Below are positions 11,263-55,235 of a stretch of 64,000 nucleotides of DNA, piece by piece (position 1 is the stretch's first letter; each line of letters begins with the position of its first letter). The DNA comes from a virus. A program made the translations under genes and the position numbers. The stretch lies in IMG/VR virus record IMGVR_UViG_3300020548_000306; one strand, given 5' to 3'. Under the pieces are notes generated by a model, which saw nothing but the letters and a program-made list of their open reading frames with translations, had not been told where the DNA came from and did no database searches.

Positions 11263-11294
11263 AAAAAAGGTACCCATTAGAGTACCTTTTTTTT
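11263..11294 (-). terminator. Intrinsic terminator
   Basis: AAAAAAGGTAC-CCATTAGA-GTACCTTTTTT inverted repeat with A/T tracts on both sides. Confidence 0.75.
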
Positions 11295-11312
11295 ATATAT
11301 TATATCGTATTA

Positions 11313-13490: not shown

Positions 13491-13507
13491 TTTTAATTGA
13501 TTTTATT

Positions 13508-13515
13508 ATAAATAT
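13508..13515 (-). promoter_or_regulatory. ATATTTAT phage promoter-like motif
   Basis: 17 nt upstream of the ATG at 13490. Confidence 0.6.
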
Positions 13516-13536
13516 CTTAGTTTTAAGTAAAGTTTA

Positions 13537-15051: not shown

Positions 15052-15053
15052 TA

Positions 15054-15296
15054 TTAATTATTTTTATTTGAAAGGTTATCTATCCATGTATTTCTTTTTA
15101 GCCAAAGAGTTTTATAAAGCTGCGTCAAAACGTTTTTAGTTATTTCAACAATTTTATTTTCTAATTCCTTTTCGTTTTTAAGTTTTTCTTTAACTATCTT
15201 TTCGATTTTATTTTTAAAATCTGCACTATCAATATAACCTTTAATTTGTTTATTGACATCTGTTTTTGATAGCTCTTCTTTAATTATATTTCTCAT
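15054..15296 (-). CDS. Small hypothetical protein with xxE leader
   Basis: MRNIIKEE...; ATATTTAT motif upstream. Confidence 0.7.
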   Translation of the reverse strand: MRNIIKEELSKTDVNKQIKGYIDSADFKNKIEKIVKEKLKNEKELENKIVEITKNVLTQLYKTLWLKRNTWIDNLSNKNN

Positions 15297-15310
15297 TTAG
15301 ACTTTTTATT

Positions 15311-15318
15311 ATAAATAT
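15311..15318 (-). promoter_or_regulatory. ATATTTAT phage promoter-like motif
   Basis: 14 nt upstream of the ATG at 15296. Confidence 0.6.
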
Positions 15319-15329
15319 GGTTAATAAAC

Positions 15330-15355
15330 AAAAAAAGCCCTAAGATTAGGGCTTT
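15330..15355 (-). terminator. Intrinsic terminator
   Basis: AAAGCCCTAA-TC-TTAGGGCTTT plus U-tract. Confidence 0.75.
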
Positions 15356-15375
15356 ATTTAATTATTATAATATTA

Positions 15376-16077
15376 TTATTTAATCATGTAATCACTAGGT
15401 GATATTACAAGTTCACATTCTGAAAATGAATTATCAGTGTAGTCTAATGGACCAAAGTTAACCGATTTTAATAAACAACCAGTCATTACCCAACTTTCAT
15501 AAACAACACCAGTTGGTTCTAGTATTTCAACTTTCATTCCAAATCTTTTATGGTTGATACCCATATCCATTAATTTCTTGTTGATTTGGTTTTGTAGTGG
15601 GGATTTGAATTTTAAAACTATGTCTTCTATTTTATATTTTTTAATAAGCGTCTTAATACCTAAAACCATTACGTTTTCAAAATTTACTTTTGGGCCATTT
15701 ATTGATGAAATGAAAAAAGGTTCAATACCTAATTCTTTATCTAATATAACTAAAAATCTATTCTTTCTACCAAATTCTGGTATTTTAATATCTTTACCAA
15801 ATCTATGATTGTTTCCATTTTTTGTTCTAGTTATTGCATCATCTTCTTTTGCCAACAACGGATTCTTTTTACCAGTTAATTCTTCATAATAAGGATTGGC
15901 TTCACCAGTGAATGGGTCATACATTGGTATCTCATTTTTCCTTTGTTCTACATACTCTTTAGGTAGTGGTTTAGACATTATAGGATTTGGTGCAGCTGCT
16001 TTTCTCCTTGTTCTTGGTTTATAATTCTTTTTATTACTTTTTGTTGTTCCTTCTTGTATTGGTTTTGGTTCTTCCAT
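15376..16077 (-). CDS. Tail-tube (T4 gp19-like) paralogue with basic N-terminal extension
   Basis: RKNRFLV...FISSINGPK...LKFKSP...VEILEPTGVVYESW.MTGC...VNFGPLDY resembles myophage tail-tube proteins (pattern recognition only). Confidence 0.55.
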   Translation of the reverse strand: MEEPKPIQEGTTKSNKKNYKPRTRRKAAAPNPIMSKPLPKEYVEQRKNEIPMYDPFTGEANPYYEELTGKKNPLLAKEDDAITRTKNGNNHRFGKDIKIPEFGRKNRFLVILDKELGIEPFFISSINGPKVNFENVMVLGIKTLIKKYKIEDIVLKFKSPLQNQINKKLMDMGINHKRFGMKVEILEPTGVVYESWVMTGCLLKSVNFGPLDYTDNSFSECELVISPSDYMIK

Positions 16078-16081
16078 AAAA

Positions 16082-16645
16082 CTATTCTTTTATTTTTATA
16101 TTATTTATAACACTTATAGTATCTTTCATACATTCACTATAAATTTTGGAACTGTAATAAGGTTTAAATTTCAATAATCCCCATAAGTATTTATTTTCCC
16201 AATCTTTATATAGAAATGTTGTTAAATTATCTTTAAATTCTTTATTCGTAAATGATATTGAATCTTTTTTAATAAACCCAGAAAAAGTATAACACTTTTC
16301 TTTTAATGTGAAATAACTTTTTTCTGAAACACTATCTGTTTTTAAAACAGTAGATGTAACAACAGAATCTCTAAATCTATATTTAGTATCTATAATGTTT
16401 GTTATGTGTTTTGTTTTAATATTTAAAACTTTTGCTATTGAATCATATTTTGGGTATAAGTCTTTTAGTTCACCAGCAGTTAATTCTTGCTGCCTAGACT
16501 TATCTTTAACGATTGCAATAACGTTATTGCTAAATCTTTTTCGTTCTTCTTTTTCATTTTTATATAGCTTAAATAAAAAAGCTAGTGATGTAAATAATAC
16601 CACCACTAATAAAACTAATCCTATTAATATTTTATTTTTTAACAT
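16082..16645 (-). CDS. N-terminally membrane-anchored protein, spanin-like candidate
   Basis: Start reassigned to MLKNKIL; one N-terminal TM followed by a coiled-coil/beta region; lies in a cluster with an amidase. Confidence 0.6.
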   Translation of the reverse strand: MLKNKILIGLVLLVVVLFTSLAFLFKLYKNEKEERKRFSNNVIAIVKDKSRQQELTAGELKDLYPKYDSIAKVLNIKTKHITNIIDTKYRFRDSVVTSTVLKTDSVSEKSYFTLKEKCYTFSGFIKKDSISFTNKEFKDNLTTFLYKDWENKYLWGLLKFKPYYSSKIYSECMKDTISVINNIKIKE

Positions 16646-17183
16646 CATAAAAAAGGTCATCATCTGTTTTAGGGTCATTTTGTAAGTTGGTTAAATAACC
16701 ATTTAACCCAGTTTTAAGTTCTTCTTCATTTAAATCACCATCACTTGCTGAATTAGATTTCATACCTTGTGTATATGATATTGTGAACTCAAATTTATTA
16801 GCGTCATTAACTGTTTTTTCACCAGTAATTACTATGTCACCAGAAAAATTTTCTGTTTTAGGTTTAATGTAAATACTAGTTATTCTAATACCTAATTTTA
16901 ATCCTTCGATAGCAGTATTAACTTTTGTGAAACGTTCATCGTTCTTAGCTAATTTTTCATATGAATCATCTATAGGAAATAATGGTTGTGGACCTTCTGC
17001 TGGTGCTTCAGCCATTTTTTCTTCTTCTGGTTCATCTGGTAAATCATCACCTTTTTCAAATATTGGTTTAGGTACGGAAGCTGTTGCTGGTGCATCATCT
17101 TCTTTTATCAATGTTTTACCAAATTCTCTAATTACTGACATCATTTTTTTTGTCATGTCGTGTTCGTTAATGTTTTCTTTCAT
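16632..17183 (-). CDS. Hypothetical acidic protein with xxE leader
   Basis: MKENINE...IRE...LIKE; Pro/Glu-rich linker. Confidence 0.7.
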   Translation of the reverse strand: MKENINEHDMTKKMMSVIREFGKTLIKEDDAPATASVPKPIFEKGDDLPDEPEEEKMAEAPAEGPQPLFPIDDSYEKLAKNDERFTKVNTAIEGLKLGIRITSIYIKPKTENFSGDIVITGEKTVNDANKFEFTISYTQGMKSNSASDGDLNEEELKTGLNGYLTNLQNDPKTDDDLFYDVKK

Positions 17184-17187
17184 TCGT

Positions 17188-17796
17188 TTAATTTTTACTT
17201 TCTAGTTTATTTTTAAATTGTTCACAATCCCATGCTGGTGATACATCAAAATAGTGTTTGGATATGTTACTTTTATATAACACACCATTATAACTACTCG
17301 TATCCTCAATTTTTGTATTGTGTCCTATAGCGGTTTTAGGTATGAAAAATTCATCACATAAATAATCACATAATTCAACACATGAATCTAATTGTTCTTG
17401 TGTGTAAGTAGCCCATTTGTTGATTCCTTTCCACATTCTGCCAACCACTATTCCATTATAAATATCACCTTTCCAGTTATAAAAATTCTTATCTGGTGAT
17501 TTTCTAGTTAAATACCCTTCATTTTCTAGTAAAATAATAATGGATTTAGTGTTTTGTTCTAATTTAGAAAAGTATTTAGATTGAAATGTTGGTTCAAAAT
17601 GTTTATGAATAACACCATCTTTATCTATTGTGAATGCTGCCGTTTTTTTATTGTTTCCGTTTAATCTAGTTTTCCAACCTATAACATGTGTCATGTCTTT
17701 GCTATTAGTATTACCAATAACTATTTGTTTTTTAATACATTCAATAGGTACATAATTTTTTTCGTCTAAACTGTATTTTTTGTCTTCTATTATCAT
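17188..17796 (-). CDS. N-acetylmuramoyl-L-alanine amidase (Amidase_2/PGRP fold), first Zn ligand apparently substituted
   Basis: QIVIGNT, FTIDKDGVI, SIIILLENEG, YTQEQLDS, IGHN, FDVSP. Confidence 0.75.
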   Translation of the reverse strand: MIIEDKKYSLDEKNYVPIECIKKQIVIGNTNSKDMTHVIGWKTRLNGNNKKTAAFTIDKDGVIHKHFEPTFQSKYFSKLEQNTKSIIILLENEGYLTRKSPDKNFYNWKGDIYNGIVVGRMWKGINKWATYTQEQLDSCVELCDYLCDEFFIPKTAIGHNTKIEDTSSYNGVLYKSNISKHYFDVSPAWDCEQFKNKLESKN

Positions 17797-19121
17797 TAAC
17801 CACGTTTATAAAAAATCTTATTATCATCACCGTTTTTAATTATTTTATTTGAGCCGATTCTTTCTATTGTGTTACTAGTTTTAGGTTTTGGTACTTCAAC
17901 TGAAAATCCTCTACCTTCTTTAATTTCTCTTATGTCTTCTAAATTAACTTTTCCAGTTGGGATTACTGGTTCTTTTTTGTATACTGGAACTTCAACATTT
18001 TTTTCACTAACAGTTGTTGATGGTTCTTCCTCTGGCATAGGTCTGATATCCCATGGTTCTATATCATTTACAGTGTCATTTACAGTGTCATTTACAGTGT
18101 CATCAAGTTCTTCTTCAATTGGTATTATGATATCTTCTGTTTCCAAATCTTTAACCATTTGATTCATAACTTCACTCAATGCATGGTCTTCATCAAAGTT
18201 TACTCCCTCATTTACTCCCTCATTTACTCCCTCATTTACTCCCTCATTATTTGATTTAATTACTTCTACAATAGTTGTTGGAGTTTCGGCAGATGGGACA
18301 AAGTTAACTTTAGGTTCTAGTGGAGTTTGTTTACTTTCCAATTCAAACACTCTGTTGGTTGCCAATATTAATGCTATTGCCAATGGGTCAAACACAAATA
18401 TAAGAAGTAGAATCATATAATTAACTACATTCGCCATTGGTGTTCCAGTTAATTCAGAAACATATTTAAGTGGGCCAACTTCACCAGATACTTCACTTCC
18501 AGCTTTTAATTCAATAGCTTTTACGTTATAAACATTTACTGAATCAGACAACACAATATTTTTAGAGTTAAGTAAGTCTATTTCAGTATTTAATAGTTGA
18601 ATTTGTTTATCTGAACTTTCAATGTCACGTCTAGCGTTTCTTTGGTTTCTGTTGTTGGTTGAATTATCCAAACGTGATTCTTGATTACCTCTTAGGTTAT
18701 TCAATTGTTCAGCACGTTTAGTTTTAGTTTCAATAATCTTTGTATTGTCAGCTATTGTTTTTTCAAATACTTGTTTCTTGGCTTCTAACACACTTAACTC
18801 ACCTTCGTGCAACTCTAATTTGTTTGCTGTTGATTGGTAAGCGTTAGATAAAAAACCATAAATACCAGCAGATGTAATTAACATAAGCACACCAACACTT
18901 ATAGTTAAATAAATTTTTAAACCTCTGGCTAATTTATGCCAATATGTGTGTAAAGCAGTAGTTGTAACTACTTTACCAATTTCCAATACAGATGCCATTA
19001 TAATAACAGCAGTACTTGCACCAGCAAATAACTGACTTAAACCCCATACTGAGAAATATGCAGCACAACCAGCAACGGCTAGTGCTAAAATTAACATTAT
19101 GTAACTAAATTTTACTTTCAT
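17796..19121 (-). CDS. Multi-pass membrane protein with coiled coil and repeat-containing disordered tail
   Basis: Three to four N-terminal TMs, long coiled coil, TM LLIFVFDPLAIALILA, then GVNE and DTVN repeats. Confidence 0.8.
   Translation of the reverse strand: MKVKFSYIMLILALAVAGCAAYFSVWGLSQLFAGASTAVIIMASVLEIGKVVTTTALHTYWHKLARGLKIYLTISVGVLMLITSAGIYGFLSNAYQSTANKLELHEGELSVLEAKKQVFEKTIADNTKIIETKTKRAEQLNNLRGNQESRLDNSTNNRNQRNARRDIESSDKQIQLLNTEIDLLNSKNIVLSDSVNVYNVKAIELKAGSEVSGEVGPLKYVSELTGTPMANVVNYMILLLIFVFDPLAIALILATNRVFELESKQTPLEPKVNFVPSAETPTTIVEVIKSNNEGVNEGVNEGVNEGVNFDEDHALSEVMNQMVKDLETEDIIIPIEEELDDTVNDTVNDTVNDIEPWDIRPMPEEEPSTTVSEKNVEVPVYKKEPVIPTGKVNLEDIREIKEGRGFSVEVPKPKTSNTIERIGSNKIIKNGDDNKIFYKRG
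18064..18103. repeat. 12-bp tandem repeat (TCATTTACAGTG) x3.3, coding DTVN
   Basis: Read directly from the sequence. Confidence 0.95.
18199..18248. repeat. 12-bp tandem repeat (TTTACTCCCTCA) x4, coding EGVN
   Basis: Read directly from the sequence. Confidence 0.95.
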
Positions 19122-30955: not shown

Positions 30956-32383
30956 TTAATACGAATTTACAGAATTAGTTGTTATTTTTATAGGAATTGT
31001 ATCACTATAAGCAACATCATTTACTTCTGTACCACATATGGTAACATATTTCTTATTATTTTTGACTCTATAAAAATATTGTGTTCCAACACTACCAGTA
31101 ACTGTAAAGCTATTTGAATACACTCCTACATTTTGAATATAGTTAGTAGTTCCAGTAAAGTATAAAGAACTAAATCCACTATCATTACCTACTTCTAATG
31201 TAAAATTACCATTATTTGTTTGTGGTGTTGGTGATACTGTCCAATTTACCGTTACTAAATTAGTATTTATACCATTTGAATATTGCAGCAATGGAAAATA
31301 AACCAATGTTATTATATCATCTTCATAGATATCACCTTCTAATATTATACGTTTAGGGTTACTAGTTGATTTATAATAATCAACATTATCAGCTAATGTC
31401 GCACCATTTATCATTACAATTATTTTTGATAATGAATCTGGGTTAACTGATGTATAAACTTCGTATTTGCTTGTTGTTGTGTTGTAATAATATTTGTTAC
31501 TACCTTCACCATTTGTAGGACCACTAGGTATAGTCCCAACAACATCAATATAATCAATAGTTAACGCAGCTGATGATGTAGGTACATATATTAATGTTAC
31601 AATATCATCAACAACCGTTGCTGCACTTAAAGTGATAACATTTGCACTATATATGTAATCATAATCCCTAGCTAAACTTAAACCATTTAAAGTAACAACA
31701 AAATCACCATTAGGATTATTAGGTAATAATATTTGTGTTGTATTTGGTTCTGGTAATATTACAGACTGGTATAATGAATTAACTGGGATACCTTGTCCAG
31801 CATTAAATAATGTTGGTGTAGCTGCTGATGTAAATGCTAAGAAATAATAATCTAAATTATTGTAAATACCATATTCATTACCAAACAAATAAAAAGATGT
31901 GTCTATTTTCTTACCTAATCTTTTTAAATAATCTGTGCATGCACTATATTCAAAAAATCCTTTTACTAAGTATTCACCATCCAATGTTAGACCACTAGTT
32001 GGTACATATTGTGTTGTTGTATTTGTCGCACTAAAAGCTGAATAATTAATAAGTTCTGATGAAAATATTGGTGTTGTTGTAAACCCAGAAAACACATCTT
32101 CATACTTGTAAATTGAAAACTTAAATAAAGCATCAGTATCAATAAAAGTTTGTGTGTTTCCAGTAAACCCAAATGTTAAAGTTATAGGTTGTGTTGAACC
32201 AGTGATTATTTGAGTACTAGCAGACATAGTTGTTCCAGTACAATCAATTTTTGTTGCACCAGTCATATTAAATAAAGGTGTTTGAAAAATACAGATATCT
32301 GAACTCATGTTGACATTATAGTCTTTTTTGTTTCTTAGTCCAGAATGTGGTGTCTGTGAATATATTCTTTCTTGGTATCTCAT
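30956..32383 (-). CDS. Virion structural protein with two NG.L...DY...D.(I/V)TL.Y repeats and an FN3-like C-terminus
   Basis: LNGLSLARDYDY...DDIVTLIY; INGATLADNVDY...DDIITLVY; YFYRVKN. Confidence 0.7.
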   Translation of the reverse strand: MRYQERIYSQTPHSGLRNKKDYNVNMSSDICIFQTPLFNMTGATKIDCTGTTMSASTQIITGSTQPITLTFGFTGNTQTFIDTDALFKFSIYKYEDVFSGFTTTPIFSSELINYSAFSATNTTTQYVPTSGLTLDGEYLVKGFFEYSACTDYLKRLGKKIDTSFYLFGNEYGIYNNLDYYFLAFTSAATPTLFNAGQGIPVNSLYQSVILPEPNTTQILLPNNPNGDFVVTLNGLSLARDYDYIYSANVITLSAATVVDDIVTLIYVPTSSAALTIDYIDVVGTIPSGPTNGEGSNKYYYNTTTSKYEVYTSVNPDSLSKIIVMINGATLADNVDYYKSTSNPKRIILEGDIYEDDIITLVYFPLLQYSNGINTNLVTVNWTVSPTPQTNNGNFTLEVGNDSGFSSLYFTGTTNYIQNVGVYSNSFTVTGSVGTQYFYRVKNNKKYVTICGTEVNDVAYSDTIPIKITTNSVNSY

Positions 32384-32625
32384 TAGTAACTTATTTCAAT
32401 ATCTTTAATTTCAACATCATACTGGTTTTTTAACCCATATATGTTAGGGGTGTTAGCTCTACTAGTATTTTGAATTTTAGAGAAATTTTGTAAAAAAGCT
32501 GTAAATCCATATATACTCACAAAATCTTCACCTTGAATGTCACATACAATATTTTTAACTAAACTAACCGAACCAGTATATTCAGTTACAACTTCACCAA
32601 CTATATTTTTTAATAATATCAACAT
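32383..32625 (-). CDS. Small hypothetical protein in the structural cluster
   Basis: 80 aa; TAATG overlap with the downstream gene. Confidence 0.6.
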   Translation of the reverse strand: MLILLKNIVGEVVTEYTGSVSLVKNIVCDIQGEDFVSIYGFTAFLQNFSKIQNTSRANTPNIYGLKNQYDVEIKDIEISY

Positions 32626-32653: not shown

Positions 32654-33244
32654 CTAAGACCTATTATAAAAATAATCCCAACTCACACCATTATTATTGG
32701 TATTACTATCTTTTACAGTACCTCTAAACTCAGAACCAATATCGATTCTTTTCATATAAATACCACAACATTTAGTTGTCACTTGTTTTTCATTGGTTAT
32801 TGTTGTGATATCTGAACACGTATCAAAATCGTATGCTTGTACTTCACAATTTGTATCTAAAAGAAAAACAATTTCTTTTTGTAATTCTTTATTTTTTTTA
32901 AATGCATCCATATAAGCATTCCATTCAGAATGACCGCATTGGTCAAAACTTCCGTTTCTCAATGCTGTTTCTAAATCAGCTAATGCTTGTCTTAATGGTC
33001 CTAATGGTTCGTAATCGATAAATACAAACCATTCATCATATAAAGCAGTTATTCTATCTTTACATTCTGACGCTGCAAAATTTCCAATTTTACTCAAATA
33101 ATATTCATTAAACATTTTACTATTATAGTCAATTATTGCCCTAAATGTTGTGAAAACATCTTCCCATTGTGTAGGTGTTGTTTTTGTCATGTTTGAACCA
33201 CAAACACCAGCATTGTATAAATCTTCTATATCAAAAAAGTACAT
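32654..33244 (-). CDS. MYFFD-family protein 3
   Basis: Begins MYFFDIEDLY. Confidence 0.75.
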   Translation of the reverse strand: MYFFDIEDLYNAGVCGSNMTKTTPTQWEDVFTTFRAIIDYNSKMFNEYYLSKIGNFAASECKDRITALYDEWFVFIDYEPLGPLRQALADLETALRNGSFDQCGHSEWNAYMDAFKKNKELQKEIVFLLDTNCEVQAYDFDTCSDITTITNEKQVTTKCCGIYMKRIDIGSEFRGTVKDSNTNNNGVSWDYFYNRS

Positions 33245-33258
33245 AATTATAAATTTAT

Positions 33259-34038
33259 TTAATTAATGTTATAATCTTTAAATAACTCATCATCAAAATT
33301 ACCGTTTTCATCAAAAGCGTCTGTTATAGGTCCTTGAGTTAAGACAATGAAATTTTTAAAACTACACATTGCAATTTTCATTTTTTCTTCAAAATTGTTA
33401 ACTTTTTGTGTTAAATCAGCTATTTCAAAACTAGTACCATAATTAGCTGTAAATGTAATTCCAGAAACTGCTTCTGTGTATGGATTAAAAATACCCCAAG
33501 TTTCAACACTAGTACCAGTTCTACAATCGTTACCACCACTCCAAGTAGTTATTAGATAATCTTTATATTGCTCGTATGTTCCACCCCATGCAAGTGATGG
33601 GTTAACCCCTTCGTTACTAAATGGCTCTTCAGAATATAGAATTTCTTGCCAATTTAATGTTTTACCATAATCATAATAATACCTACATAATTTATAAGTA
33701 TAATATAATTCAATACTGCTTTTGACCCAGTCTGTAATTTTTAATTGAAAATCTAAATAAGCAACTTTAAAATCTGGTGTGCAACCAAAATCTGGTTCTG
33801 TAGGGTTTACTCCATCTTGAGGTGCTTCAGCGGCCATTGTCGCTAAATACATTTCACTAGCAGCTTTTAAAAAAGCATCACGGGTTGCCCTATAAGTTGC
33901 AAAAGAATCATCCATAAAGAAGCCTGGTCCTCCACCACAACCGTGTTGATTTCTGGAAGCTCCATAATTATACCATGTTTGAGAAGAATCTTGAAACAGA
34001 TTCTTGCTGTAATAATCTACTAAATCAAAAAAATACAT
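33259..34038 (-). CDS. MYFFD-family protein 2
   Basis: Begins MYFFDLVDYY; contains TYRATRDAFLKA. Confidence 0.75.
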   Translation of the reverse strand: MYFFDLVDYYSKNLFQDSSQTWYNYGASRNQHGCGGGPGFFMDDSFATYRATRDAFLKAASEMYLATMAAEAPQDGVNPTEPDFGCTPDFKVAYLDFQLKITDWVKSSIELYYTYKLCRYYYDYGKTLNWQEILYSEEPFSNEGVNPSLAWGGTYEQYKDYLITTWSGGNDCRTGTSVETWGIFNPYTEAVSGITFTANYGTSFEIADLTQKVNNFEEKMKIAMCSFKNFIVLTQGPITDAFDENGNFDDELFKDYNIN

Positions 34039-34054
34039 AATTGTTTGTTTTTAT

Positions 34055-34062
34055 ATAAATAT
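34055..34062 (-). promoter_or_regulatory. ATATTTAT phage promoter-like motif
   Basis: 16 nt upstream of the ATG at 34038. Confidence 0.5.
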
Positions 34063-34727
34063 TATATTGTATACTCTTCAAATGTGTCGTTATCTATTGC
34101 CTTCATTAACGCTTTAAGGCTACCCATATATTTTCTTAATGAATTGTTTTGATTATAATAATATGAATCATTCCAATCATTATATTGTGGGTGTACTATT
34201 GTGAAATTAACACTTGTATTAATATTTGTTGATGGGTTAGCTGAAAAACAACTATATGTTGTTGCACCAGTATAAGGTGATTCCGATTGAGAAGTAATTA
34301 AAGACCCATCTGTAGCATAACTAGACCACGCATCTTTATAACTAGTACATGTAAAATTACCTTCTGTTTTATTATCTACACATCTAGATTCCCATACTTT
34401 TTCAGTAAAACATGATTGATTAGCATATTTTACCCAATCAATTCTGTATTGCAACCAATTTGGTAGTAACTGATTATAATAAATGTTTCTAGCTAAAGTA
34501 TTTGTTGAATTACCAATATTAACGGTTGTTGCTGTAAACCATCTATGCACATAATTTATGTGTGCATCTGCTGTAGCGTTTGCAGTGCTTGCCATATCCC
34601 CATAAGCAGTAAAATGTTGTGGTCTACCACAATAGTTTATACCACCGCCACCACTACCACCTTTCAAATCAGCGTTAAACTGATTTATAGTCGTACCAGC
34701 ATAATCTTCTATGTCAAAAAAATACAT
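34062..34727 (-). CDS. MYFFD-family protein 1
   Basis: Begins MYFFDIEDYA. Confidence 0.75.
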   Translation of the reverse strand: MYFFDIEDYAGTTINQFNADLKGGSGGGGINYCGRPQHFTAYGDMASTANATADAHINYVHRWFTATTVNIGNSTNTLARNIYYNQLLPNWLQYRIDWVKYANQSCFTEKVWESRCVDNKTEGNFTCTSYKDAWSSYATDGSLITSQSESPYTGATTYSCFSANPSTNINTSVNFTIVHPQYNDWNDSYYYNQNNSLRKYMGSLKALMKAIDNDTFEEYTI

Positions 34728-34742
34728 ATCTTATAAATTTTA

Positions 34743-37700
34743 TTAATATATTATTGTTGTTGCAGTAAACCCAGATAACGTATGGGTACTTGCAGTTATT
34801 GTATATTTAGGTGGTAAATTAGCACCGTTTGTTGCAATTAACTCTGTAATTGTATTAACCGTATTGGCAGAAACATCACTCATTGACCAGTTTCTAGTAC
34901 CATCACTAAATAAATACTCATTAGCCCATAACATTGGTTTTATAGATAAAACCAAGTTTCTTTTTTTAGCCATTGAATTTTGTTTTTGTAGTCTTCTTTG
35001 GATGAAAATTTGGTCTTCAATAAAATCATGTAATCCAGTACTCCAACTGTTTAATATTGGGTCCCACGCATAATCTACATGTGATGAAGAGGTACCAACA
35101 CATATTAAATCACCTTTAGTTGCACCAGTTGGTAATTCACTAACAGTTGATACTGCACTTAAATATTTTACATCACTAACACCACTTAATAAACTACTTA
35201 AAGGGATTCCATGTGTTGGGTAATTAACCGTATTCCACTCTGTATATGCTGAAGCTCTAGACCACCATGTGTATTTAATACGTCTCATAGTACCCTTTGA
35301 ATAGTATTTACTAAGATTAGTGATAGGTTGTATTGGTTGATTATAATCAACAGATGGGAAATCTGATTTTTTAAACCCTAAATACATACCATCAATTATG
35401 TCACTTATTTTACCTTCTTGCTCTTCATAATACTCTCTATATTCTTGACTAGTATAGCCAAAGTCAATTCCGTTTGGTCCATTATTTGGGGTTAATGAAT
35501 TAATTGATGAAAAATTACATGTTGTTGCCGTGTAATATAATAAATCAATATCTGAACCGCTTGGCATATTATTTAAATCATCCATTAAATCTAAATTCCT
35601 AAAGTTTATATATGCTGGTGCTGGTGGTTCAGCGTCACAACTAAATTCACTAAATTGGTTTCTCTTAGTTAAACATAAATCATTTGTAGTTTCACAATCA
35701 ACTGTTATTTTATAATCACAAGGTAAACATTTACCATTTGTTTCTATAATTTGTTTACCAGTTACTGGTGTTGCATTTTGCATAACCCATTTTTTAAATG
35801 GATGTAGTAGTAAATAATTACTAGCCCATGTAAATGGTTTTAAAGATAATCTAAGTTCGTTCCATGCTTTTAACCAAGCGTCACGGTTTGCTCTATAGGT
35901 GGTTTTATAATCTTCAAAATCACCACTCCATCCAGTCACCCATTGTTGTGTTTGTGGGTCCCAGATATAATCTAAATCATCTGATTCTGAATAATGTACG
36001 TCTCCAGGTTGACCAATTAAAGGTAATTCAGCTGGGCTTGACACAGCTTTCCTCCAAGTAAGCTGGTCAGTATATGCTGAAAGAACCATACCCATAGAAA
36101 TTGGTGTGCCTGGACTTCCATACCATAATGTGTTTAAAGATATTTTAGCTGGGTAATATGTGTGTGTTTTTTTAGGTACACCTTTATCGAAGAAGTTCCA
36201 TGGCCATGTGTGTGGTTGATTAAATCTTGGTGATGTAGGTAGTACCATTTTTTTAAATGTGTCTTTGTTTGGTCCTTCGGCTATGCCATTGATGTTTAAT
36301 TCGTCTGCAACTTCATCATAACAATACCCTAAACTCATTTCTTCTTGGAAAGTAGTTCCAGTATTGTAAAATGTATCATATGTATCCCTAACATCAGCCA
36401 TATAATTATCTAAATCACTAGGGTAATCTATATATGAATCAATAACAGATTGTAAACTAGAATAATTACAAAAATTACAAATTGAGTCTGAGCTACCCCA
36501 AGAATTAAGTTCTGATGATGTAGGTATACCTCTGATATCATCCATTAAATCAAATCTTGTTATTGTTGTTATCCCTTCATTACAATCACCAGATTCACAT
36601 TCGCTACCACAAGTTGAATAGAATTTTTCGATTTGTGCATAAACACATTCATTTAAGAAATCCCATGAAGTATTACTAGGGTCTTTAAAACCATCAATGC
36701 ATGTCGTTAAATTACCAGTTTTGTATTGGAATTTTTGTTGGTCAAATAATGTATTACCATAAATAATTGTGTTACCCCATATTGTTGTTGACGGAATGAC
36801 TTGTTCAACAATATCTGTCCAGTAATTACCGACCATATCTGTTAAACTTCTCATCTTGTCATATGTATACGCTAAACTTAGATTTGTTGTGTATAATGAT
36901 GAATGTAAGTATTTGTCATAGAATGCTCTTAACGTTGCATATTTTGAAATAGTTTTTCTATTCTTAACATCAATCATTTCAGATGAAATAATTTCCTTAA
37001 AATTAACATCAGATGAAATGTTAGCTAAATTAGTTGATGTCAATGAGTCATATGAAACACAGTCAGAACCACAACCACATGTGTCAATTGTTGTACCAGT
37101 CGTTGCTGAAATAACATTTCTACTAATAGATGTACATACTGGTGTTCCACCACTACAATTATTTAATGAATAACCAGATGGACATGAATAACCATTTGAA
37201 ACGCTTAATAAGAATTGACTACCAATCATTTGTTTAGTAGAGAAAATTAAACCAGTTGTTCCAGTTGTTGTTGACGCAGTTAATGTATCTAAACTATCTG
37301 GGTTATAAATTTCGGCAACAAATGCTGCTTGACTACCAGCGTTATATCCTTCAACTTCTATTATTGTAGGACCAGAAGGTATACTAATAGGAAATACATG
37401 TAAATAATTAAAGTTTCTTGCGTTAGTTTGGTTAAAATTAACAATTAATTCACCGTTTATTTTAAATCTAAGCCAGTTATCTGAAGCCAACCCTAAATAA
37501 TAAACTTTTGGTTCTAGTATATCAATACAAACAGTAAACCCTATCCATTCATATTCTGGATAGTTTGTACTACTACCACTAGGATTAGCTAAGTATGTTC
37601 CCCATACACCAGCATCATTTAATCTACCATCGGAATAGTTACCAGCATTATTAGACCAAAATGTATTTCCAGTACTAACTAATTTTTGTACTGATACAGT

Positions 37701-40679
37701 AGTACCAGAACTATCAGTAACTGTACTAGATGGTAAGGTTAATGGATATATAAAGTTATCAATGTTTTCATAAAATCTAGCACCAAAATTATTATATGAT
37801 GTAACTTTTTGTCCAGTATAAGCAGTAAACATTGTTCCACTAAATGTTGCAGCAATTGTTGATGATGAATAACAACTATCATTTGAAGGTGATGTATTAT
37901 AACCATTAGGACAACTAAATGCTATTACATTTTGATTACATAAACCACTATAAACATTTAATATATCATTATTATCATTAATATAACACCATACATCAGT
38001 TTCTATTGCTGATGCAATGTTCATGTTTAAGTCAATCTCTTTTGTGTTGATTACTAATCTTTCATCTAATACTTCATAATCAGTATTTCTAATTGACGTA
38101 CCACCAGTTGGATTTGAAATAACAAATTCTCTATTTACATATGTTGTGTTGCTAACCCAAGATTTTTTATTATCAACAATTCTTGTTAAATTAAAACCTG
38201 GTGATTGCGTCAATGTAACAAAACCTTCAGTACCGTTAACACATTCCTTATTAAGTTTAATGTTATCTAACATCACACAAATATCACTACATGTATTGTT
38301 AACTTTAAGTGATATTTTTATCTTTTTGTTTTTGATTGATTCTAATATGTTCTCATCATCAATTACTTCGCTATAATTTAACCAATTAGATGACATTATC
38401 TTTTGAGATAATGAACCTTTAAACGTTTCTATTTCAGCTTTTTCGTAACCAGATTGATTATATAAACTTTTTAGAATCATATCTCTAGTAAACCTACATG
38501 ACGAAACATTACATAAATCACCATTTGGTGTTGTTCTACCTTCACATTCAAACATATAGAAACCTAGTGGTGCTGAAGGACCATATAAATTGTATTTTTC
38601 AAATATCAATGGTACACATTCATCTTTTTCAGCCCAAACCAATTCATCTTCATCTGGTTTACCACAAACATAAAAACCACTATCGTTTTGTTTTTCTAAT
38701 AAATATTCATATAAATTACCAGTACCAATAGTTGGGAATAATGGGAATTCATATACTGTTGTTAGTGAACCATCAGATTCAACTACGTCTAATGTAAAAC
38801 TAACGTCTAACGTTTCTAAGACATCAGTTATTGTTTTACATGTCGTAGTTTCAGTTGTTGTCTGTTGTGCTAGTAGAGTTGTTAATTGAGCATTTAAAAG
38901 TTCTAATTGTGTGTTACAATTAGTTTGTTCTGTAATTTTGGTGTCAAGTCTTTGTTTAATTATAGATTTTGTTGTAAAAGCTGTTGTACATTCAGTTAAA
39001 TATATTTGTCCGTTTGTTTCTTGTAATTTATACAATGTTGCAACTTGTTGACAAGTATATGATGTAGAATCACCTCTTGTGAATTTTTCATAGTTAACTG
39101 GTCCTAATATTTTTTGCCATTCAGCTAAACCGTTTGGTTCTGAAATACAAAAAGTTTTTGAACTAGTATTTGCTGCTGTTCTACCATATTGATAAAAAGC
39201 AAAAGGAGTTGTACTAGAAATGTCACCAAACCCAGTATTGTTAAAGTTATTTGAAACAACTTTAACTGGTGTTATTGGATTCCTATAAGGTTTGTTCGCA
39301 AAATTATATGTTGTAGTTCTAGTGTAAGGGTCACTAAACCAAATTGGGGTTTCTCCCCAGTCTGGTAAATATGGTGAAGGTATGTACCCTCCGTCTACTA
39401 CTTCTGGGTAATATCCACCTCTTCCACCTCTTCCGCTGCCAGTAGTTGTAGTTGTTCCACCTCCAGTTGTCCCACCATTAGTTGTAGTTGTTGTAGTGGT
39501 TGTTGTGGTTGTTGTCGTTTCGGTATTAAGTGGACAATTTAAGGTTATTGATTTTGATAACGAAAGGCCTTTTGAATCTGTTACAGTAAACCACGCTATT
39601 TGTGATAATGTATAATTAAAATTAGGTTCGCCTTGAGAACCACTAGTATAATTGTTACCACCAAAGTTTTCGGTATCTAAAGGATAATTAAATATATTAA
39701 GAGTATTATTTGGTATATTTACTTCAAATACTTTTCCAATAATCGAATCTTCTTTGGTTAAAGCTGGACGAATATTATATTTGTAAGGTGGTGTACCACC
39801 TTGTATGTTACTAATTAGAGTTCTATAACCTTTTTTACCAACACCTTCATTTACGCATGTATATGACACATTAAAACTTAATGGTGAAACATTATTAGTC
39901 TGTGGGGTTATGTAACTATTAAAATTTTCGCAAGTCACTGAATAAGAAGTGTTGCTAAATTCAGTAGTTAACGTAGTAATTTCTTGTCTAATAGTTTCAC
40001 ATTTAGTTTCTTGTACTGCTATTTCTTGTCTTAATATATTAATTTCACTTGTTGAATCACCTTGTGGGTCAAATGCGTTTACCATTAATTGTTGTAACTT
40101 AGCACAATCTAATTTAAATAAATAATCAAATTCTACATTTAACGTACAATCAATATCATTAGTACCCACATTAAAAATGTTACCATCATTCCCTTTAGGG
40201 TTAAGTACTATTTTAAATGTTGTTGCACATGAATCTGTTGGCGGTGCTACTGGTTTAGTTCTACATGTTTGTGTATTATCATCCCATGTTGCTTTTGTAC
40301 CAGCTGGTAAATTGAAATAACTTTTACCAGTTTTTTCAACACTCATTTTTTCAATTTGAGGTACTATATATTGAGTAAATTGCTGCTCACAACAAAACTT
40401 ACCTAAATAGTTTGTTGAATAATTAAGAATTTTCTTTTCTTCTCTAGTATATAAAGAATTAATAAAAATTTGAATTTCACCTTCTGGTGTTATATCGATT
40501 ATTTCGTGTTTAAGCGTTAACCCATCATAAGTATTATTTTTTAAAAAATAATCATGTTGTTGTTTGTTAAAATTTACTGCTACATTTTTTAATAAAGTAT
40601 CACGATTAGCTCTACATGTAGATGAACCATCTTCCCTATCATAACCAATTGGTTGTGCTATCTCAAATAAATATCCCAT
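34743..40679 (-). CDS. Giant (1978 aa) modular baseplate/tail-appendage protein
   Basis: SprB-like repeat (QGGTPPYKY...TVTDSKG), poly-Thr linker, coiled coils, PA14-like segment (ASDNWLRFKING...GPTIIEVEGYN), VEQVIPSTTIW, duplicated C-terminal modules. Confidence 0.75.
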   Translation of the reverse strand: MGYLFEIAQPIGYDREDGSSTCRANRDTLLKNVAVNFNKQQHDYFLKNNTYDGLTLKHEIIDITPEGEIQIFINSLYTREEKKILNYSTNYLGKFCCEQQFTQYIVPQIEKMSVEKTGKSYFNLPAGTKATWDDNTQTCRTKPVAPPTDSCATTFKIVLNPKGNDGNIFNVGTNDIDCTLNVEFDYLFKLDCAKLQQLMVNAFDPQGDSTSEINILRQEIAVQETKCETIRQEITTLTTEFSNTSYSVTCENFNSYITPQTNNVSPLSFNVSYTCVNEGVGKKGYRTLISNIQGGTPPYKYNIRPALTKEDSIIGKVFEVNIPNNTLNIFNYPLDTENFGGNNYTSGSQGEPNFNYTLSQIAWFTVTDSKGLSLSKSITLNCPLNTETTTTTTTTTTTTTNGGTTGGGTTTTTGSGRGGRGGYYPEVVDGGYIPSPYLPDWGETPIWFSDPYTRTTTYNFANKPYRNPITPVKVVSNNFNNTGFGDISSTTPFAFYQYGRTAANTSSKTFCISEPNGLAEWQKILGPVNYEKFTRGDSTSYTCQQVATLYKLQETNGQIYLTECTTAFTTKSIIKQRLDTKITEQTNCNTQLELLNAQLTTLLAQQTTTETTTCKTITDVLETLDVSFTLDVVESDGSLTTVYEFPLFPTIGTGNLYEYLLEKQNDSGFYVCGKPDEDELVWAEKDECVPLIFEKYNLYGPSAPLGFYMFECEGRTTPNGDLCNVSSCRFTRDMILKSLYNQSGYEKAEIETFKGSLSQKIMSSNWLNYSEVIDDENILESIKNKKIKISLKVNNTCSDICVMLDNIKLNKECVNGTEGFVTLTQSPGFNLTRIVDNKKSWVSNTTYVNREFVISNPTGGTSIRNTDYEVLDERLVINTKEIDLNMNIASAIETDVWCYINDNNDILNVYSGLCNQNVIAFSCPNGYNTSPSNDSCYSSSTIAATFSGTMFTAYTGQKVTSYNNFGARFYENIDNFIYPLTLPSSTVTDSSGTTVSVQKLVSTGNTFWSNNAGNYSDGRLNDAGVWGTYLANPSGSSTNYPEYEWIGFTVCIDILEPKVYYLGLASDNWLRFKINGELIVNFNQTNARNFNYLHVFPISIPSGPTIIEVEGYNAGSQAAFVAEIYNPDSLDTLTASTTTGTTGLIFSTKQMIGSQFLLSVSNGYSCPSGYSLNNCSGGTPVCTSISRNVISATTGTTIDTCGCGSDCVSYDSLTSTNLANISSDVNFKEIISSEMIDVKNRKTISKYATLRAFYDKYLHSSLYTTNLSLAYTYDKMRSLTDMVGNYWTDIVEQVIPSTTIWGNTIIYGNTLFDQQKFQYKTGNLTTCIDGFKDPSNTSWDFLNECVYAQIEKFYSTCGSECESGDCNEGITTITRFDLMDDIRGIPTSSELNSWGSSDSICNFCNYSSLQSVIDSYIDYPSDLDNYMADVRDTYDTFYNTGTTFQEEMSLGYCYDEVADELNINGIAEGPNKDTFKKMVLPTSPRFNQPHTWPWNFFDKGVPKKTHTYYPAKISLNTLWYGSPGTPISMGMVLSAYTDQLTWRKAVSSPAELPLIGQPGDVHYSESDDLDYIWDPQTQQWVTGWSGDFEDYKTTYRANRDAWLKAWNELRLSLKPFTWASNYLLLHPFKKWVMQNATPVTGKQIIETNGKCLPCDYKITVDCETTNDLCLTKRNQFSEFSCDAEPPAPAYINFRNLDLMDDLNNMPSGSDIDLLYYTATTCNFSSINSLTPNNGPNGIDFGYTSQEYREYYEEQEGKISDIIDGMYLGFKKSDFPSVDYNQPIQPITNLSKYYSKGTMRRIKYTWWSRASAYTEWNTVNYPTHGIPLSSLLSGVSDVKYLSAVSTVSELPTGATKGDLICVGTSSSHVDYAWDPILNSWSTGLHDFIEDQIFIQRRLQKQNSMAKKRNLVLSIKPMLWANEYLFSDGTRNWSMSDVSANTVNTITELIATNGANLPPKYTITASTHTLSGFTATTIIY
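39410..39522. repeat. Low-complexity Thr/Gly tract (T13, GGTTGGGTTTTTGSGRGGRGG)
   Basis: GTT/GTA/GTG triplet runs on the plus strand. Confidence 0.85.
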
Positions 40680-40684
40680 TTTAA

Positions 40685-43390
40685 TTATTCATATAAACTT
40701 TTTGTTAGTGTTAAAGGTTCGCAACAACCTATTTCACCTTTAATTTTTCCCTCTATATACTGATACATATAACCTTCTAAACCTAAATTTAAATCTGCTA
40801 TACCAGCATTTGTTAATTTACACCCAAACCCTTCAATGTTAGTGTAAGGGTCTTTTATTTTTGTTGATATTGTATAATATGTTGGACAATGTGACCCATC
40901 TGGGGTTACTAATGCTAATCTACCATCACCATAAAAACTTTTAAATGTTAAAAATTTATTGGTAGACCCAATTGGAACTATAGTTGGTTGCAATATATCG
41001 CCTCTAGAGTAAGAATCACCAACTCTATCATATATAACTTCCCTCATACTCCATTTACATGCTGCTGTACACCCACATTTATTATTACCACAACAAATAT
41101 TACCACTAGTCATCATGTTTAAAGATGTTGGTGAATCTATACCTTCTTCATATTGACTTTCAAAGAACATTGATGTACCACCAATAGTTTTACAACATTC
41201 TTTATCAATAAAAATGCTGCTATAATTAGCACTAGTATCATTTTTTATTGGTACACCTTTTGCGTCTCTTTCATACAATTCAAACACATAAATACCAGTT
41301 GGTGCGTCAAGTTGTTTACTTATTATATTATCACAAGTTAAAGTGGTTGAACCAGCTTTAGTTACACAAACATTCAAAGCATCATCATCCCCTTCACATG
41401 GACATCCACAAACACTAACTGTTTGTGTTGGCATTGGGTCTGGAATAACCTCGGCAGTGTAAACATAACAGCTATCTAAATCGTTACCAGCATCATCAAC
41501 TATATCAATATATGTTTGACCATTATAACCATTAATAAGTCCTAAATTGTAATTTGTAAATAGATTACTAGTATTACTAACTCTAGCTGTTGTACTAACA
41601 GTTACTGTTGAAAAATTAGGTATTAGTGTTCTGAATTGGTTAATGTATTTAGAACCTCCATCGTATGGTCCTACGTGAGGGTTATTACCTAATAATATAT
41701 CTATGTCGGCCATTTGACCACCAGTCTGTCTATACCATAACCCATAATTTTGGTAATACATTTCATCAGAGTTAGGTAAAGGTTTTGGATACCCATCAGT
41801 GTCAACTGGATATAAACTAGGGTCAGTATCTAATCCATTTGCATCTAAAACTTCCAAAAATAAATCAATATCAATTGGACCATCAGCTAAATAAATGTAT
41901 TCGTTAAATGTTATTAAACCATTAGGTATACCTAAAAACTTTAATAAAAATTCAACTGACTTTCTAGCACCTTTTGCTTTCCATATCCATGGTGAGTTTA
42001 ATATTAATCTTCTCCATAGTTCAATATCAACTTCAGAAGGAGTCATACCAATTGATTGACCAGCGTAGCTAGACTTTTCACTTTTAGTGAAAGTTTCTAA
42101 TAAGTCATCACCTAAGACAGATGTTATTAATTCCCACCCTAAAACTCTTGCCAAATCTTTTAAATATTTATCTGGCATGTTGTTCTTTTTGTTGTATGTA
42201 ACAACATGTGCAAATGAGATACCTTTGATGAATTTATTTATATCATCAAAAGACCTACCATAAATGTTTAAAGTTTTTGTTACTTTTTGTCCAGTAGTTG
42301 TGTCTTGATGTAATTCATCTAAACGTACTGGTAAAGTATCAAAACTAGAAATTGATTCAGAAACTAAAAATCTAGTCATTAAACTTGTTTCATTTGCGTC
42401 AAATTCATTAACCATTTCTAATATGTCTGTGACATAATTTTCATAATCAACACTGTTAAATTCTAAATTATAACCATCTTTTACTGGCCATGTTAAAGTT
42501 TTAGTTTGTGTTATTAAATTACCAGTTTCTGATTTTTGTGGATATTCAAATGTTATTGTGTATTTTGGTATTGTTGTTAAGTTTAATAAAACTTTTTTTA
42601 ATCCGTCTAATGTATTGAAAAATAAATTTGTTGCAGCACTTTTTGGTTTAATGTGATAAGTTAGCGTTTGACTTACACTATTACCAAATGGGTCACCAAC
42701 AACTGTTAAATAAATATAATCATTCTCAACATCATTAGAACCAATAAATTCTACTAAATTGTATTCAGTGTCATTAATGAATACACAATATTCTAAATAA
42801 TTAATGACTAAATCTCTAAGTTTATTACTTTCGTTGTATGTATTAAGCAATGTTCCAGTTTGAACATAATTAATATCATATTTATTTATTAACGCACCAG
42901 TACTTACTTTAAAAGTTGCTAAATTTGTTAATATATCGTATGAATAATCTTCATAAGTATTTGTTAAAATACTAATAGAAGGATTAATAGCGTTTACGTA
43001 GATTGACGCTGGCCATGAAGTTATTATATCTTCTAAAGTAACCCTAAAATATTCACTCATTGACCCAAATAACGCATGATTTTTAAGGTTCGTAGAATCT
43101 AGTCTTAAAATTGTTTTTGCGTTAGCTTTAACGATTTCTTGGAATTGAGTATCGTTAGGAGTTAATTCATCAATAGAATAAAACTTTGAGAAATTATTTG
43201 TGATGTAGTTTTTTGTTACTTTAGGGTCTAAGTTTGTTGTCACACTAAAGTTACCCATAGTGAATAAAGTGTTACCCCCATTATTGGTTAACTGTAAACC
43301 AACTAGGTCTGGACTGAATTCAGTGTATTCTATATTTCTATTATAGATTGTTTTTTTAGAATACCCAGGTACTTTAATTTTTTTAGCCAT
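40685..43390 (-). CDS. Baseplate protein with a P2 gpI (tail protein I)-like domain
   Basis: MPDKYLKDLARVLGW...LWRRLILNSPWIWKAKGARKSVEFLLKFLG. Confidence 0.7.
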   Translation of the reverse strand: MAKKIKVPGYSKKTIYNRNIEYTEFSPDLVGLQLTNNGGNTLFTMGNFSVTTNLDPKVTKNYITNNFSKFYSIDELTPNDTQFQEIVKANAKTILRLDSTNLKNHALFGSMSEYFRVTLEDIITSWPASIYVNAINPSISILTNTYEDYSYDILTNLATFKVSTGALINKYDINYVQTGTLLNTYNESNKLRDLVINYLEYCVFINDTEYNLVEFIGSNDVENDYIYLTVVGDPFGNSVSQTLTYHIKPKSAATNLFFNTLDGLKKVLLNLTTIPKYTITFEYPQKSETGNLITQTKTLTWPVKDGYNLEFNSVDYENYVTDILEMVNEFDANETSLMTRFLVSESISSFDTLPVRLDELHQDTTTGQKVTKTLNIYGRSFDDINKFIKGISFAHVVTYNKKNNMPDKYLKDLARVLGWELITSVLGDDLLETFTKSEKSSYAGQSIGMTPSEVDIELWRRLILNSPWIWKAKGARKSVEFLLKFLGIPNGLITFNEYIYLADGPIDIDLFLEVLDANGLDTDPSLYPVDTDGYPKPLPNSDEMYYQNYGLWYRQTGGQMADIDILLGNNPHVGPYDGGSKYINQFRTLIPNFSTVTVSTTARVSNTSNLFTNYNLGLINGYNGQTYIDIVDDAGNDLDSCYVYTAEVIPDPMPTQTVSVCGCPCEGDDDALNVCVTKAGSTTLTCDNIISKQLDAPTGIYVFELYERDAKGVPIKNDTSANYSSIFIDKECCKTIGGTSMFFESQYEEGIDSPTSLNMMTSGNICCGNNKCGCTAACKWSMREVIYDRVGDSYSRGDILQPTIVPIGSTNKFLTFKSFYGDGRLALVTPDGSHCPTYYTISTKIKDPYTNIEGFGCKLTNAGIADLNLGLEGYMYQYIEGKIKGEIGCCEPLTLTKSLYE

Positions 43391-54854: not shown

Positions 54855-55235
54855 TTATAATTTAATTACTATTATATCGGTTGTTTCAAAAACACCTTCA
54901 GTTATTACATATTGCATTGTTACAACAGCAGCATATTCACTTTCATCAGATTGTTCAATTTTTAATTCAGTGAAAGTTAATTTTGGCATGAATTTTTTTG
55001 TAACTGTTCTTATTTCTTCCAGAATACCAGCGTAAGTTAATTCATCATTTGGTTCATATATAAATTTTAATAAATTTGTCCCAAAATCTGGCATGTATAG
55101 TCTTTGCCCTCTTTGAGTTAATAGTAAATGTAGCAAATCAGCTTTTAAAGCTTGATTTGGGTCTTCATTCAAATCTAACAAAAAACCTTTTTTACTGTCT
55201 TTGAATGGATAATTTATGTTGATATACTTAGCCAT
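54855..55235 (-). CDS. Baseplate wedge gp25/gpW-like protein
   Basis: LL.LLLTQRGQRLYMPDFGTNL..FIYEP. Confidence 0.9.
   Translation of the reverse strand: MAKYININYPFKDSKKGFLLDLNEDPNQALKADLLHLLLTQRGQRLYMPDFGTNLLKFIYEPNDELTYAGILEEIRTVTKKFMPKLTFTELKIEQSDESEYAAVVTMQYVITEGVFETTDIIVIKL

Follow-up and report, generated by a model that had tools for sequence, protein, structure and literature searches.

Three tandem phage tail-module genes and a neighbouring giant gene carry a conserved head motif that may act as an assembly interface

The DNA examined here, referred to as the window, is a 64,000-nucleotide stretch of the virus record IMGVR_UViG_3300020548_000306 from IMG/VR; its GC content is 30%, and all of its genes are on the minus strand. 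Three tandem genes in the window encode proteins that begin with nearly the same peptide, termed the head below. Headed gene 1 (34062..34727, minus strand) encodes a protein of 221 amino acids (aa), P0003, that starts MYFFDIEDYA and ends DNDTFEEYTI; headed gene 2 (33259..34038, minus strand) encodes a 259-aa protein, P0002, that starts MYFFDLVDYY, with the head at residues 1-10 (34009-34038); and headed gene 3 (32654..33244, minus strand) encodes a 196-aa protein, P0001, that starts MYFFDIEDLY, with the head at 33215-33244, and ends in the recurrent tail WDYFYNRS (32657-32680). Directly upstream lies the gene for a giant protein of 1978 aa (34743..40679, minus strand). When all six frames of the 64 kb were scanned, MYFFD occurred three times, each time as the start of one headed gene, and the translations confirm an earlier description made from this DNA alone (the original prediction), according to which three tandem genes share a near-invariant N-terminal peptide.

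These four genes sit within a block of baseplate and fibre genes. At the upstream end of the block are a gp25-like gene (54855-55235) and a gp6-like baseplate wedge gene (53039-54850), followed downstream by genes for proteins of 127, 1532, 610, 275, 293, 307 and 901 aa without known family, then the giant, the three headed genes, and genes for proteins of 80, 475, 730 and 405 aa, after which come replication and recombination genes (RuvC-like, primase, exonuclease and SbcCD). The giant and the headed genes form a cassette that varies among related phages between two conserved flanks: upstream, the 901-aa protein (40685..43390, minus strand), which in this phage ends TKSLYE (40688-40705), and downstream, the 80-aa protein (32383..32625, minus strand), which is present in the related loci L001, L003, L013, L014 and L017. 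The region had no DNA or protein match among 50,697 records of GenBank phages, and these records also held no match to the 259-aa protein, to a 136-aa family member or to the bacterial motif segment described below. For the gp6-like gene, the nearest cultured relatives were Microcystis phage Mel-JY01 and Flavobacterium 'immuto' phages, at 27-29% identity. The window belongs to an uncultured myovirus-like phage, with the headed genes lying within its distal baseplate/fibre block. In a more distant lineage, large proteins just upstream of the headed genes (L005:6475-9975, L006:5713-8598 and L007:6979-9978) gave weak Pfam matches to SprB repeats, which is consistent with a Bacteroidota host; judging from sequence, this uncultured freshwater lineage probably infects Bacteroidota.

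Family searches over 5.8 billion proteins recovered 25 members for the 259-aa protein, 19 for the 221-aa protein (18 of which were aligned) and 11 for the 196-aa protein, all of them metagenomic and unnamed. In every member of the three orthologue families, residues 1-9 read MY(F/L)(F/L)D[LIFT]xD[YFL], and mean pairwise column identity over these residues was 0.81-0.91, compared to 0.46-0.66 for the remainder; body identity falls to 33% in the 259-aa family, 53% in the 221-aa family and 52% in the 196-aa family. The 259- and 221-aa families are paralogs, homologous over their full length (hhalign 99.5%, E 2.9e-22, 211 columns), and this homology takes in a C-terminal helix and a DxDTFEEY-like ending, which explains why the two proteins end alike, as the original prediction had noted. 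The 196-aa family has only its first ~70 residues in common with the other two (hhalign 96%, E 3.9e-9; and 80%), and past about residue 70 the protein continues into a different, Cys-rich body. The bodies had been described as divergent, and this is the case for the 196-aa protein but not for the other two.

The conservation of the head was then considered at the level of codons. Across 16 headed gene starts, Tyr2, Phe4, Asp5 and Asp8 are fixed while their codons vary synonymously (Tyr2, TAT 13 and TAC 3; Asp5, GAT 12 and GAC 4; Asp8, GAT 14 and GAC 2), and the 25 nucleotides upstream are only 53% alike (0.535, against 0.40 for other genes). The alternative codons at invariant residues, together with the dissimilar upstream DNA, imply that the constraint acts on the peptide and not on the DNA. 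These data bear on the possibility that the start is conserved as a device at the level of DNA or RNA, either a copied gene-start cassette for efficient initiation in a host that makes little or no use of Shine-Dalgarno sequences or a recombination linker at module boundaries. Such a device would fit the very AT-rich start, the somewhat greater likeness of the upstream 25 nucleotides than in other genes, and the presence of the same first nine codons at a gene start made by fission (see below), but given the synonymous variation, the clearly different upstream sequences, and the same peptide following signal peptides in bacterial genes of 38-45% GC with unrelated DNA, we regard it as highly improbable. 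The start codons do run into T6-T7 tracts, as had been pointed out previously, but they only reflect how Tyr-Phe-Phe is encoded when the genome is AT-rich. The idea that they mark a slippery or frameshift site was rejected, since the tract corresponds to the codons TAT TTT TTT and relatives carry TTC, TAC or TTA.

A sequence word had also been assigned to each headed gene, and a AATTTATA or ATATTTATA word is indeed found 4-24 nucleotides upstream of each of the three starts: a AATTTATA word at 34732..34739 (minus strand), 5 nucleotides upstream of headed gene 1, and similar words at 34054-34062 for headed gene 2 and 33248-33255 for headed gene 3 (both minus strand). However, words of these types stand ahead of 13 of the 59 minus-strand genes, whereas their overall frequency would predict about 1.6 (roughly an 8-fold excess), so that they appear promoter-like, phage-wide and not peculiar to the headed family. 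The ATATTTATA-type word is probably a phage promoter element used throughout the phage, and its interpretation as a family-specific signal was rejected on account of this phage-wide use and its lack of conservation upstream of orthologues. It is mostly located 20-25 nucleotides before the start codon, and examples of genes preceded by such words are those at 4745-5014, 8920-10689, 11313-13490, 15054-15296, 17796-19121 and 33259-34038.

The N-terminal peptide proved to be one of the two parts of a single motif of ~30 residues, roughly FDLEDY-xTT-xRATRDA-xxKA, the other part being an RAxRD helix. That the two parts constitute one motif follows from their contiguity in bacterial homologues and in an internal copy within the giant. 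Moreover, the bacterial consensus, FDLEDYATTYRATRDAYLKA, aligns both with the helix of the 259-aa family (hhalign E 3.2e-9) and with the very N-terminus of the 221-aa family (hhalign). In headed gene 1, the head and a degenerate first motif copy occupy residues 1-23 (34659-34727) and a second copy residues 44-66 (34530-34598); headed gene 2 has a full copy at residues 38-66 (33841-33927), and headed gene 3 a weak copy at residues 27-52 (33089-33166). The helix in the 259-aa protein, TYRATRDAFLKA (33862-33897), recurs in the giant at residues 1594-1605 (35865-35900), with a weaker copy at residues 21-31 (40587-40619). The DNA is ~75% identical over the motif copies, with synonymous differences, in agreement with the previously reported recurrence of this helix in the giant with DNA similarity. 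A hidden Markov model of the motif, built from 48 instances, some of which were taken from the window itself, matched only four consecutive genes in the window, namely those for the giant and the three headed proteins.

To characterize the head more broadly, a 70-column profile of the head domain was searched against 1.84 billion representatives (E <= 1e-3). Only 67 clusters matched, the great majority of them proteins of uncultured phages, and in most of these the match begins at residue 1-3, with starts that include MYFFD, MYFYD, MLFD, MLLFD and MFFD in proteins of 96-529 aa; the head is also N-terminal in proteins of 1202 and 1436 aa. About 15 matches were of another kind, in which a signal peptide is directly followed by FDLEDYATTYRATRDAYLKA (signal peptides were judged by eye from a basic start, a hydrophobic run and small residues before the cut; the protease sites mentioned below were also judged by eye). 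The phage head domain, of ~70 residues, consists of two tandem copies of the ~30-residue unit, of which the first is mostly truncated to FFD[LI]xDY and the second is complete. It starts at residue 1-4 with (Y)FFD[LI]xDY, followed by a variable loop and then (D/E)D-x3-T-x-RATRDA-xxKA-xxE(W/Y)(F/Y)L; the full motif copy corresponds to the predicted first long helix of a helical-bundle core, which in many members closes with a C-terminal helix and a DGDTF(D/E)EY-like ending. Neither the three headed proteins nor the giant matched Pfam or PHROGs, the 259- and 221-aa proteins had no match in NCBIfam, PDB sequences yielded nothing for the 259-aa family profile or the giant, and a literature search for the motif strings returned nothing relevant. 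The family and its motif are new and undescribed, and under strong constraint at the protein level.

The giant itself belongs to this family. Its start, MGYLFE, is a degenerate head, and a syntenic 1202-aa protein on a 324-kb contig (L017) starts MSYFFDLEDFYTTCRA; the MGYLFEI start of the giant had been noted earlier. The degenerate head and motif occupy residues 1-33 (40581-40679), and a strong internal copy at residues 1586-1616 (35832-35924) reads DFEDYKTTYRANRDAWLKAWNELRLSLKPF; this copy is contiguous and nearly identical to a bacterial copy. The C-terminal part of the giant comprises two modules of ~290 aa each, A (35667-36641) and B (34746-35612), that are 27% identical to each other and represent an internal duplication, with approximate boundaries derived from BLAST. 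At residues ~395-420 there is a run of ~13 threonines, followed by Gly/Thr/Arg-rich low complexity and then by Cys-rich and coiled-coil-like segments.

Bacterial relatives carry the motif at an equivalent position. On L008, a 43% GC contig that also carries panBCD, coaX and dfp, there are eight tandem paralogs of 230-290 aa (9476-17783), each with a signal peptide followed by FD[LI][EG]DYxTTxRATRDA and most with a second copy ~60 residues from the C-terminus. The array is interleaved with two lipoprotein-like genes of 355-360 aa and adjoins, on its downstream side, a subtilisin-like protease with a P-domain (Peptidase_S8 and P_proprotein). Similar arrays occur in two other chromosomal contexts (L009 and L010), and a scan of species representatives found relatives in metagenome-assembled genomes labelled Bacteriovorax stolpii and 'Nitrosovibrio sp.'; since the contig of the latter and the 43% GC contig have the same proteins, the binning of the 'Nitrosovibrio sp.' contig is doubtful. 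Searches for a family or a publication describing these secreted paralogs came back empty. The mature chain begins with the motif in the phage members as it does in the bacterial ones.

Structure prediction was applied to both groups. An AlphaFold 2 model of the 259-aa protein, built from a 25-sequence alignment, is a helical bundle (predicted local distance difference test score, pLDDT, 72; predicted template modelling score 0.70) with helices at residues 43-69, 90-123, 155-169 and 206-235 and one beta hairpin at 175-201, whereas residues 1-7 have a pLDDT below 50 and are not placed within the monomer. Foldseek searches of PDB and BFVD with this model gave nothing at E <= 0.001, AFDB clusters and the ESM Atlas gave nothing meaningful, and the best hit in a wide VIA-align search, to the coiled-coil region of SipB, had a Z of 9.8, below the noise stated by the tool for helical proteins. 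The model of a bacterial member (pLDDT 69) is a similar bundle whose first and last long helices each carry one of the two motif copies, and a fold search with it returned only coiled-coil look-alikes. Complex prediction covered one pair, module B of the giant with an alignment of 5 rows and the 259-aa protein with one of 25 rows; its score was 0.29, the mark being 0.32.

These models raise the possibility that the motif is simply an intramolecular fold element, a cap and first helix of a bundle, and that the headed proteins are ordinary diverged paralogs that dock nothing. In accordance with this, the motif helix of residues 43-69 is modelled inside the bundle at a pLDDT of 67-82, the two copies of the bacterial members fall on the first and last long helices, and the 259- and 221-aa proteins are full-length paralogs. 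However, the first nine residues are the most conserved and yet are unplaced in the monomer model, the head also begins giant proteins, mature chains begin with the motif in phage as well as bacterial members, and, at a fission point, an unrelated SprB-like body has received a head without the core. Taken together, these points make a purely intramolecular motif quite improbable.

To determine how the cassette varies, related phage loci, all of them metagenomic, were compared (L001, L003, L005-L007, L011-L016 and L017). A profile scan of IMG/VR identified six loci, while a scan with a single protein as query gave no match. In the window's own lineage (L001, L013 and L014), the order is the same, with the giant followed by the 221-, 259- and 196-type genes, and L003 has a fourth headed gene, of 516 aa. 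L017, which is syntenic on both sides, encodes the 1202-aa protein with a canonical head, a 331-aa headed protein, a 728-aa unheaded protein and a 191-aa headed protein. The more distant lineage has one to three headed genes, of 133, 229-252, 346-357, 375-408 or 448 aa, and headed proteins also occur on an unrelated phage contig of 28% GC, behind an 830-aa serine-rich repetitive protein that is fibre-like by eye only. Between the conserved flanks there are thus one to four headed genes plus the giant, with bodies of 133-516 aa, and a profile search across relatives, proposed earlier as a check, does reveal variation in both copy number and bodies. Free swapping of cassettes within the window's own lineage, in contrast, was not borne out, as the three genes there are fixed sets of syntenic orthologues.

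Two loci contain fusions. In the 516-aa protein of L003, an entire 259-type core (hhalign 99.1%, E 1e-18) precedes a module of ~290 aa; this module shares 74% identity with module B, the final 289 residues of the giant, and 27% with module A. The 448-aa protein of L006 has the head domain in its first 52 residues (hhalign E 2.3e-11) followed by a module that resembles module A of the giant by eye. Since modules of the giant are found elsewhere behind a headed core, these fusions suggest that the small cores and the C-terminal modules of the giant work together.

An alternative explanation is that the small headed proteins are fibre assembly factors, chaperones like Tfa of lambda and Mu or gp38 and gp57A of T4, that are absent from the virion or only partly retained in it. 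They would help the C-terminal modules of the giant to fold or trimerise, and the head would bind a feature common to nascent fibres. The small genes do lie directly downstream of the gene for a giant, fibre-like protein, their predicted fold is helical rather than beta-rich, and across loci the headed genes co-vary with neighbouring modules. Nevertheless, there was no Pfam or PHROG match to any chaperone family, the core in L003 and L006 is covalently fused upstream of a distal module and kept as one protein, the giant proteins themselves carry the head, and the bacterial homologues are secreted and have no adjoining fibre gene. Tfa proteins also reportedly have a variable N-terminal and a conserved C-terminal domain, a polarity opposite to that of the conserved N-terminus here. 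A chaperone function is accordingly considered unlikely.

A gene fission also bears on a joining role. A SprB-like-repeat protein of 464/473 aa is encoded by one gene in L006 and L015 (L006:11822-13216, L015:11445-12866) and by two genes in L005, L007 and L016 (L005:11756-13359, L007:11753-13377, L016:12080-13614). The split forms differ by an insertion of ~20 residues at the break, the only sequence inserted there, which comprises a C-terminal tail, a stop and spacer, and a head: the first half acquires the tail (N/G)WDYFYNR(H/S) or RSLYE, and the second half the head MYFFDL(E/G)DY, which in L016 reads MYFFDLEDYATT. Here an unrelated body has gained the head alone, with no other part of the core, and the position of this head exactly where the covalent link was lost is the strongest single argument that it joins proteins. 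Tails of the fission type also occur in the window, where the 196-aa protein ends WDYFYNRS and the 901-aa protein ends TKSLYE just before the MGYLFE of the giant.

Several further observations concern the tails and the placement of the motif. Compared with L005 and L016, the two fission tails have changed places between the halves in L007. The C-terminus of the 901-aa protein, TKSLYE in the window, is CCDPLNRR in L001, L003 and L014, and that of the 196-aa protein, WDYFYNRS in the window, is ISIVNN in L001, L003, L013 and L014. Exchange seems to affect the C-terminal tails as much as the heads, and these tails may form the counterpart of the heads in a connector system. Additionally, a 408-aa protein of L007 (L007:12151-13377) has a perfect internal FDLEDYATTYR near its C-terminus, inside a Cys-rich loop, at a site where its L005 homologue reads TYGKKAYATYI; it seems from this comparison that the motif can emerge inside a loop or be grafted into one.

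Based on the data presented above, we propose, with a probability of roughly 50%, that the motif is an assembly or docking interface for modular distal-tail proteins. The three headed genes and the giant constitute one undescribed family, defined by the ~70-residue head domain. Its members would be non-enzymatic subunits, structural or accessory, of the complex formed by the distal baseplate and the tail fibres. The head would act in docking or hetero-oligomerisation, mounting on one site bodies as different as bare 130-aa cores, 220-260-aa cores with inserts, cores with ~290-aa distal modules, and SprB-like repeat bodies. The headed proteins would be present in the virion, and the head would bind a partner, candidates for which are the giant's own motif copies, its modules A and B, or the aromatic C-terminal tails of neighbours. 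A conserved docking peptide with interchangeable modules was also the central idea of the original prediction, and the varied bodies, the copy number of one to four, the location within the tail module, the fusions and the fission all agree with it, while the absence of free swapping in the phage's own lineage does not. The further suggestions made there about the bodies fared less well: two of the three are paralogous helical bundles (the 259-aa protein having been modelled), which is unusual for a receptor binder or an effector, and nothing points to injected effectors or injected cargo.

Some of the findings weigh against an assembly interface. The motif is also found internally or near the C-terminus, in the giant, the bacterial proteins and the 408-aa protein of L007, implying that a free N-terminus is not obligatory, and the predicted location of the motif helix within the bundle would also fit a purely intramolecular role. 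With Pfam and PHROGs, the neighbours showed neither a T4 gp10-like branching domain nor another docking socket of a known kind. In the window's lineage (L001, L013 and L014), the trio is a fixed set of syntenic orthologues, so that exchange in this lineage is slow. Finally, the predicted body of the 259-aa protein, a helical bundle with generic fold matches, is unlike typical beta-rich receptor binders.

A more far-reaching version of the proposed interface, which we consider rather unlikely, is that the FDLEDY-TTxRATRDA unit, possibly together with the tails WDYFYNRS and KSLYE, is a portable head-to-tail joiner of split fibre pieces, and that the same element builds bacterial extracellular assemblies from the Bacteriovorax-like secreted paralogs. 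Evolution may then add the unit wherever a tail protein splits or a new module is recruited. If true, this would be a connector system common to phages and bacteria without a described counterpart. Conserved N-terminal docking peptides make the receptor-binding systems of phages modular and engineerable, and the known examples come from few cultured phage groups. The motif described here, located in the hypervariable cassette of the distal tail in an entire lineage of uncultured freshwater phages, is unusually well defined, being invariant at ~10 positions across proteins that are otherwise 20-30% identical, and the natural experiments provided by fusions, fission and a copy number of one to four point to a joining role. 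The bacterial secreted paralogs offer a second, tractable system for the binding target of the motif, which, if it is a self-contained connector, would be useful for the engineering of phage host range and as a protein-assembly tag.

With regard to known systems, a small-gene family with a common N-terminus is also known from phage T4, whose internal proteins are encoded by polymorphic, neighbouring small genes and carry an almost invariant N-terminus of ~10 residues, the capsid-targeting sequence (CTS; PMC3012670). This pattern alone would allow the head to be a capsid-targeting or loading leader that marks polymorphic proteins for packaging and injection. The T4 proteins, however, are head-internal cargo with a cleaved leader, whereas the headed genes are in a tail-module context, within the baseplate/fibre block between the baseplate genes and the flank of 80-, 475- and 730-aa proteins and not near head genes; moreover, fibre-like proteins of 1200-1978 aa carry the same head, the motif recurs internally and in bacterial secreted proteins, and no conserved (L/I)-x-E protease site follows the head by inspection, the 259-aa protein reading DLVDYY. 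A leader of this kind is exceedingly improbable. Another comparison is with podophage A1002, whose chain-like 'rope and bead' fibre reportedly has 11 sites for dimers of two proteins (PMC13730344). In that fibre, one long protein provides repeated sites for small fibre proteins encoded by separate genes; the giant, comparably, has two to three motif copies and comes just before three small headed proteins, which it may bind. The two systems are unrelated in sequence and fold.

The genes for Tfa of Mu and lambda and for gp38 of T4 and T2 are small and come right after a large fibre gene, and some of the encoded proteins stay on the fibre tip. The headed genes are likewise directly downstream of a gene for a large fibre-like protein, but their products have no sequence match to these proteins or to Caudo_TAP/gp38, their conserved end is N-terminal, and there are several paralogs, some of them fused to fibre modules. 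A closer parallel may be found in the anchor-branch receptor-binding protein (RBP) systems of the Klebsiella KP32, KP34, Menlow and PhiK64-1 groups, of K1-5, K1E and SP6, and of G7C (Latka et al. 2019, PMC6872550), where N-terminal docking peptides can be as short as 7-11 residues (PMC6872550) and docking is reported to have been validated (PMC13352976). In common with these RBPs, the headed proteins are encoded by neighbouring tail genes with a short, group-specific N-terminal peptide, differing bodies and varying copy number. The anchor-branch peptides, however, dock onto a T4 gp10-like branching domain that the primary RBP carries, and neither Pfam nor PHROGs detected such a domain in the neighbours of 901, 1978, 1532, 610, 307, 293 and 275 aa, for which no structure-based search was made, so that the headed proteins do not appear to be members of that system. 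In addition, the anchor-branch bodies are beta-helical depolymerases or tailspikes, whereas two of the bodies here are predicted helical bundles, and the motif is ~30 residues long, duplicated, also internal, and has bacterial secreted homologues. By analogy, the most economical view would be that the headed proteins use a conserved-interface mechanism resembling that of the N-terminal peptides of secondary RBPs in Klebsiella, K1-5 and G7C-type phages.

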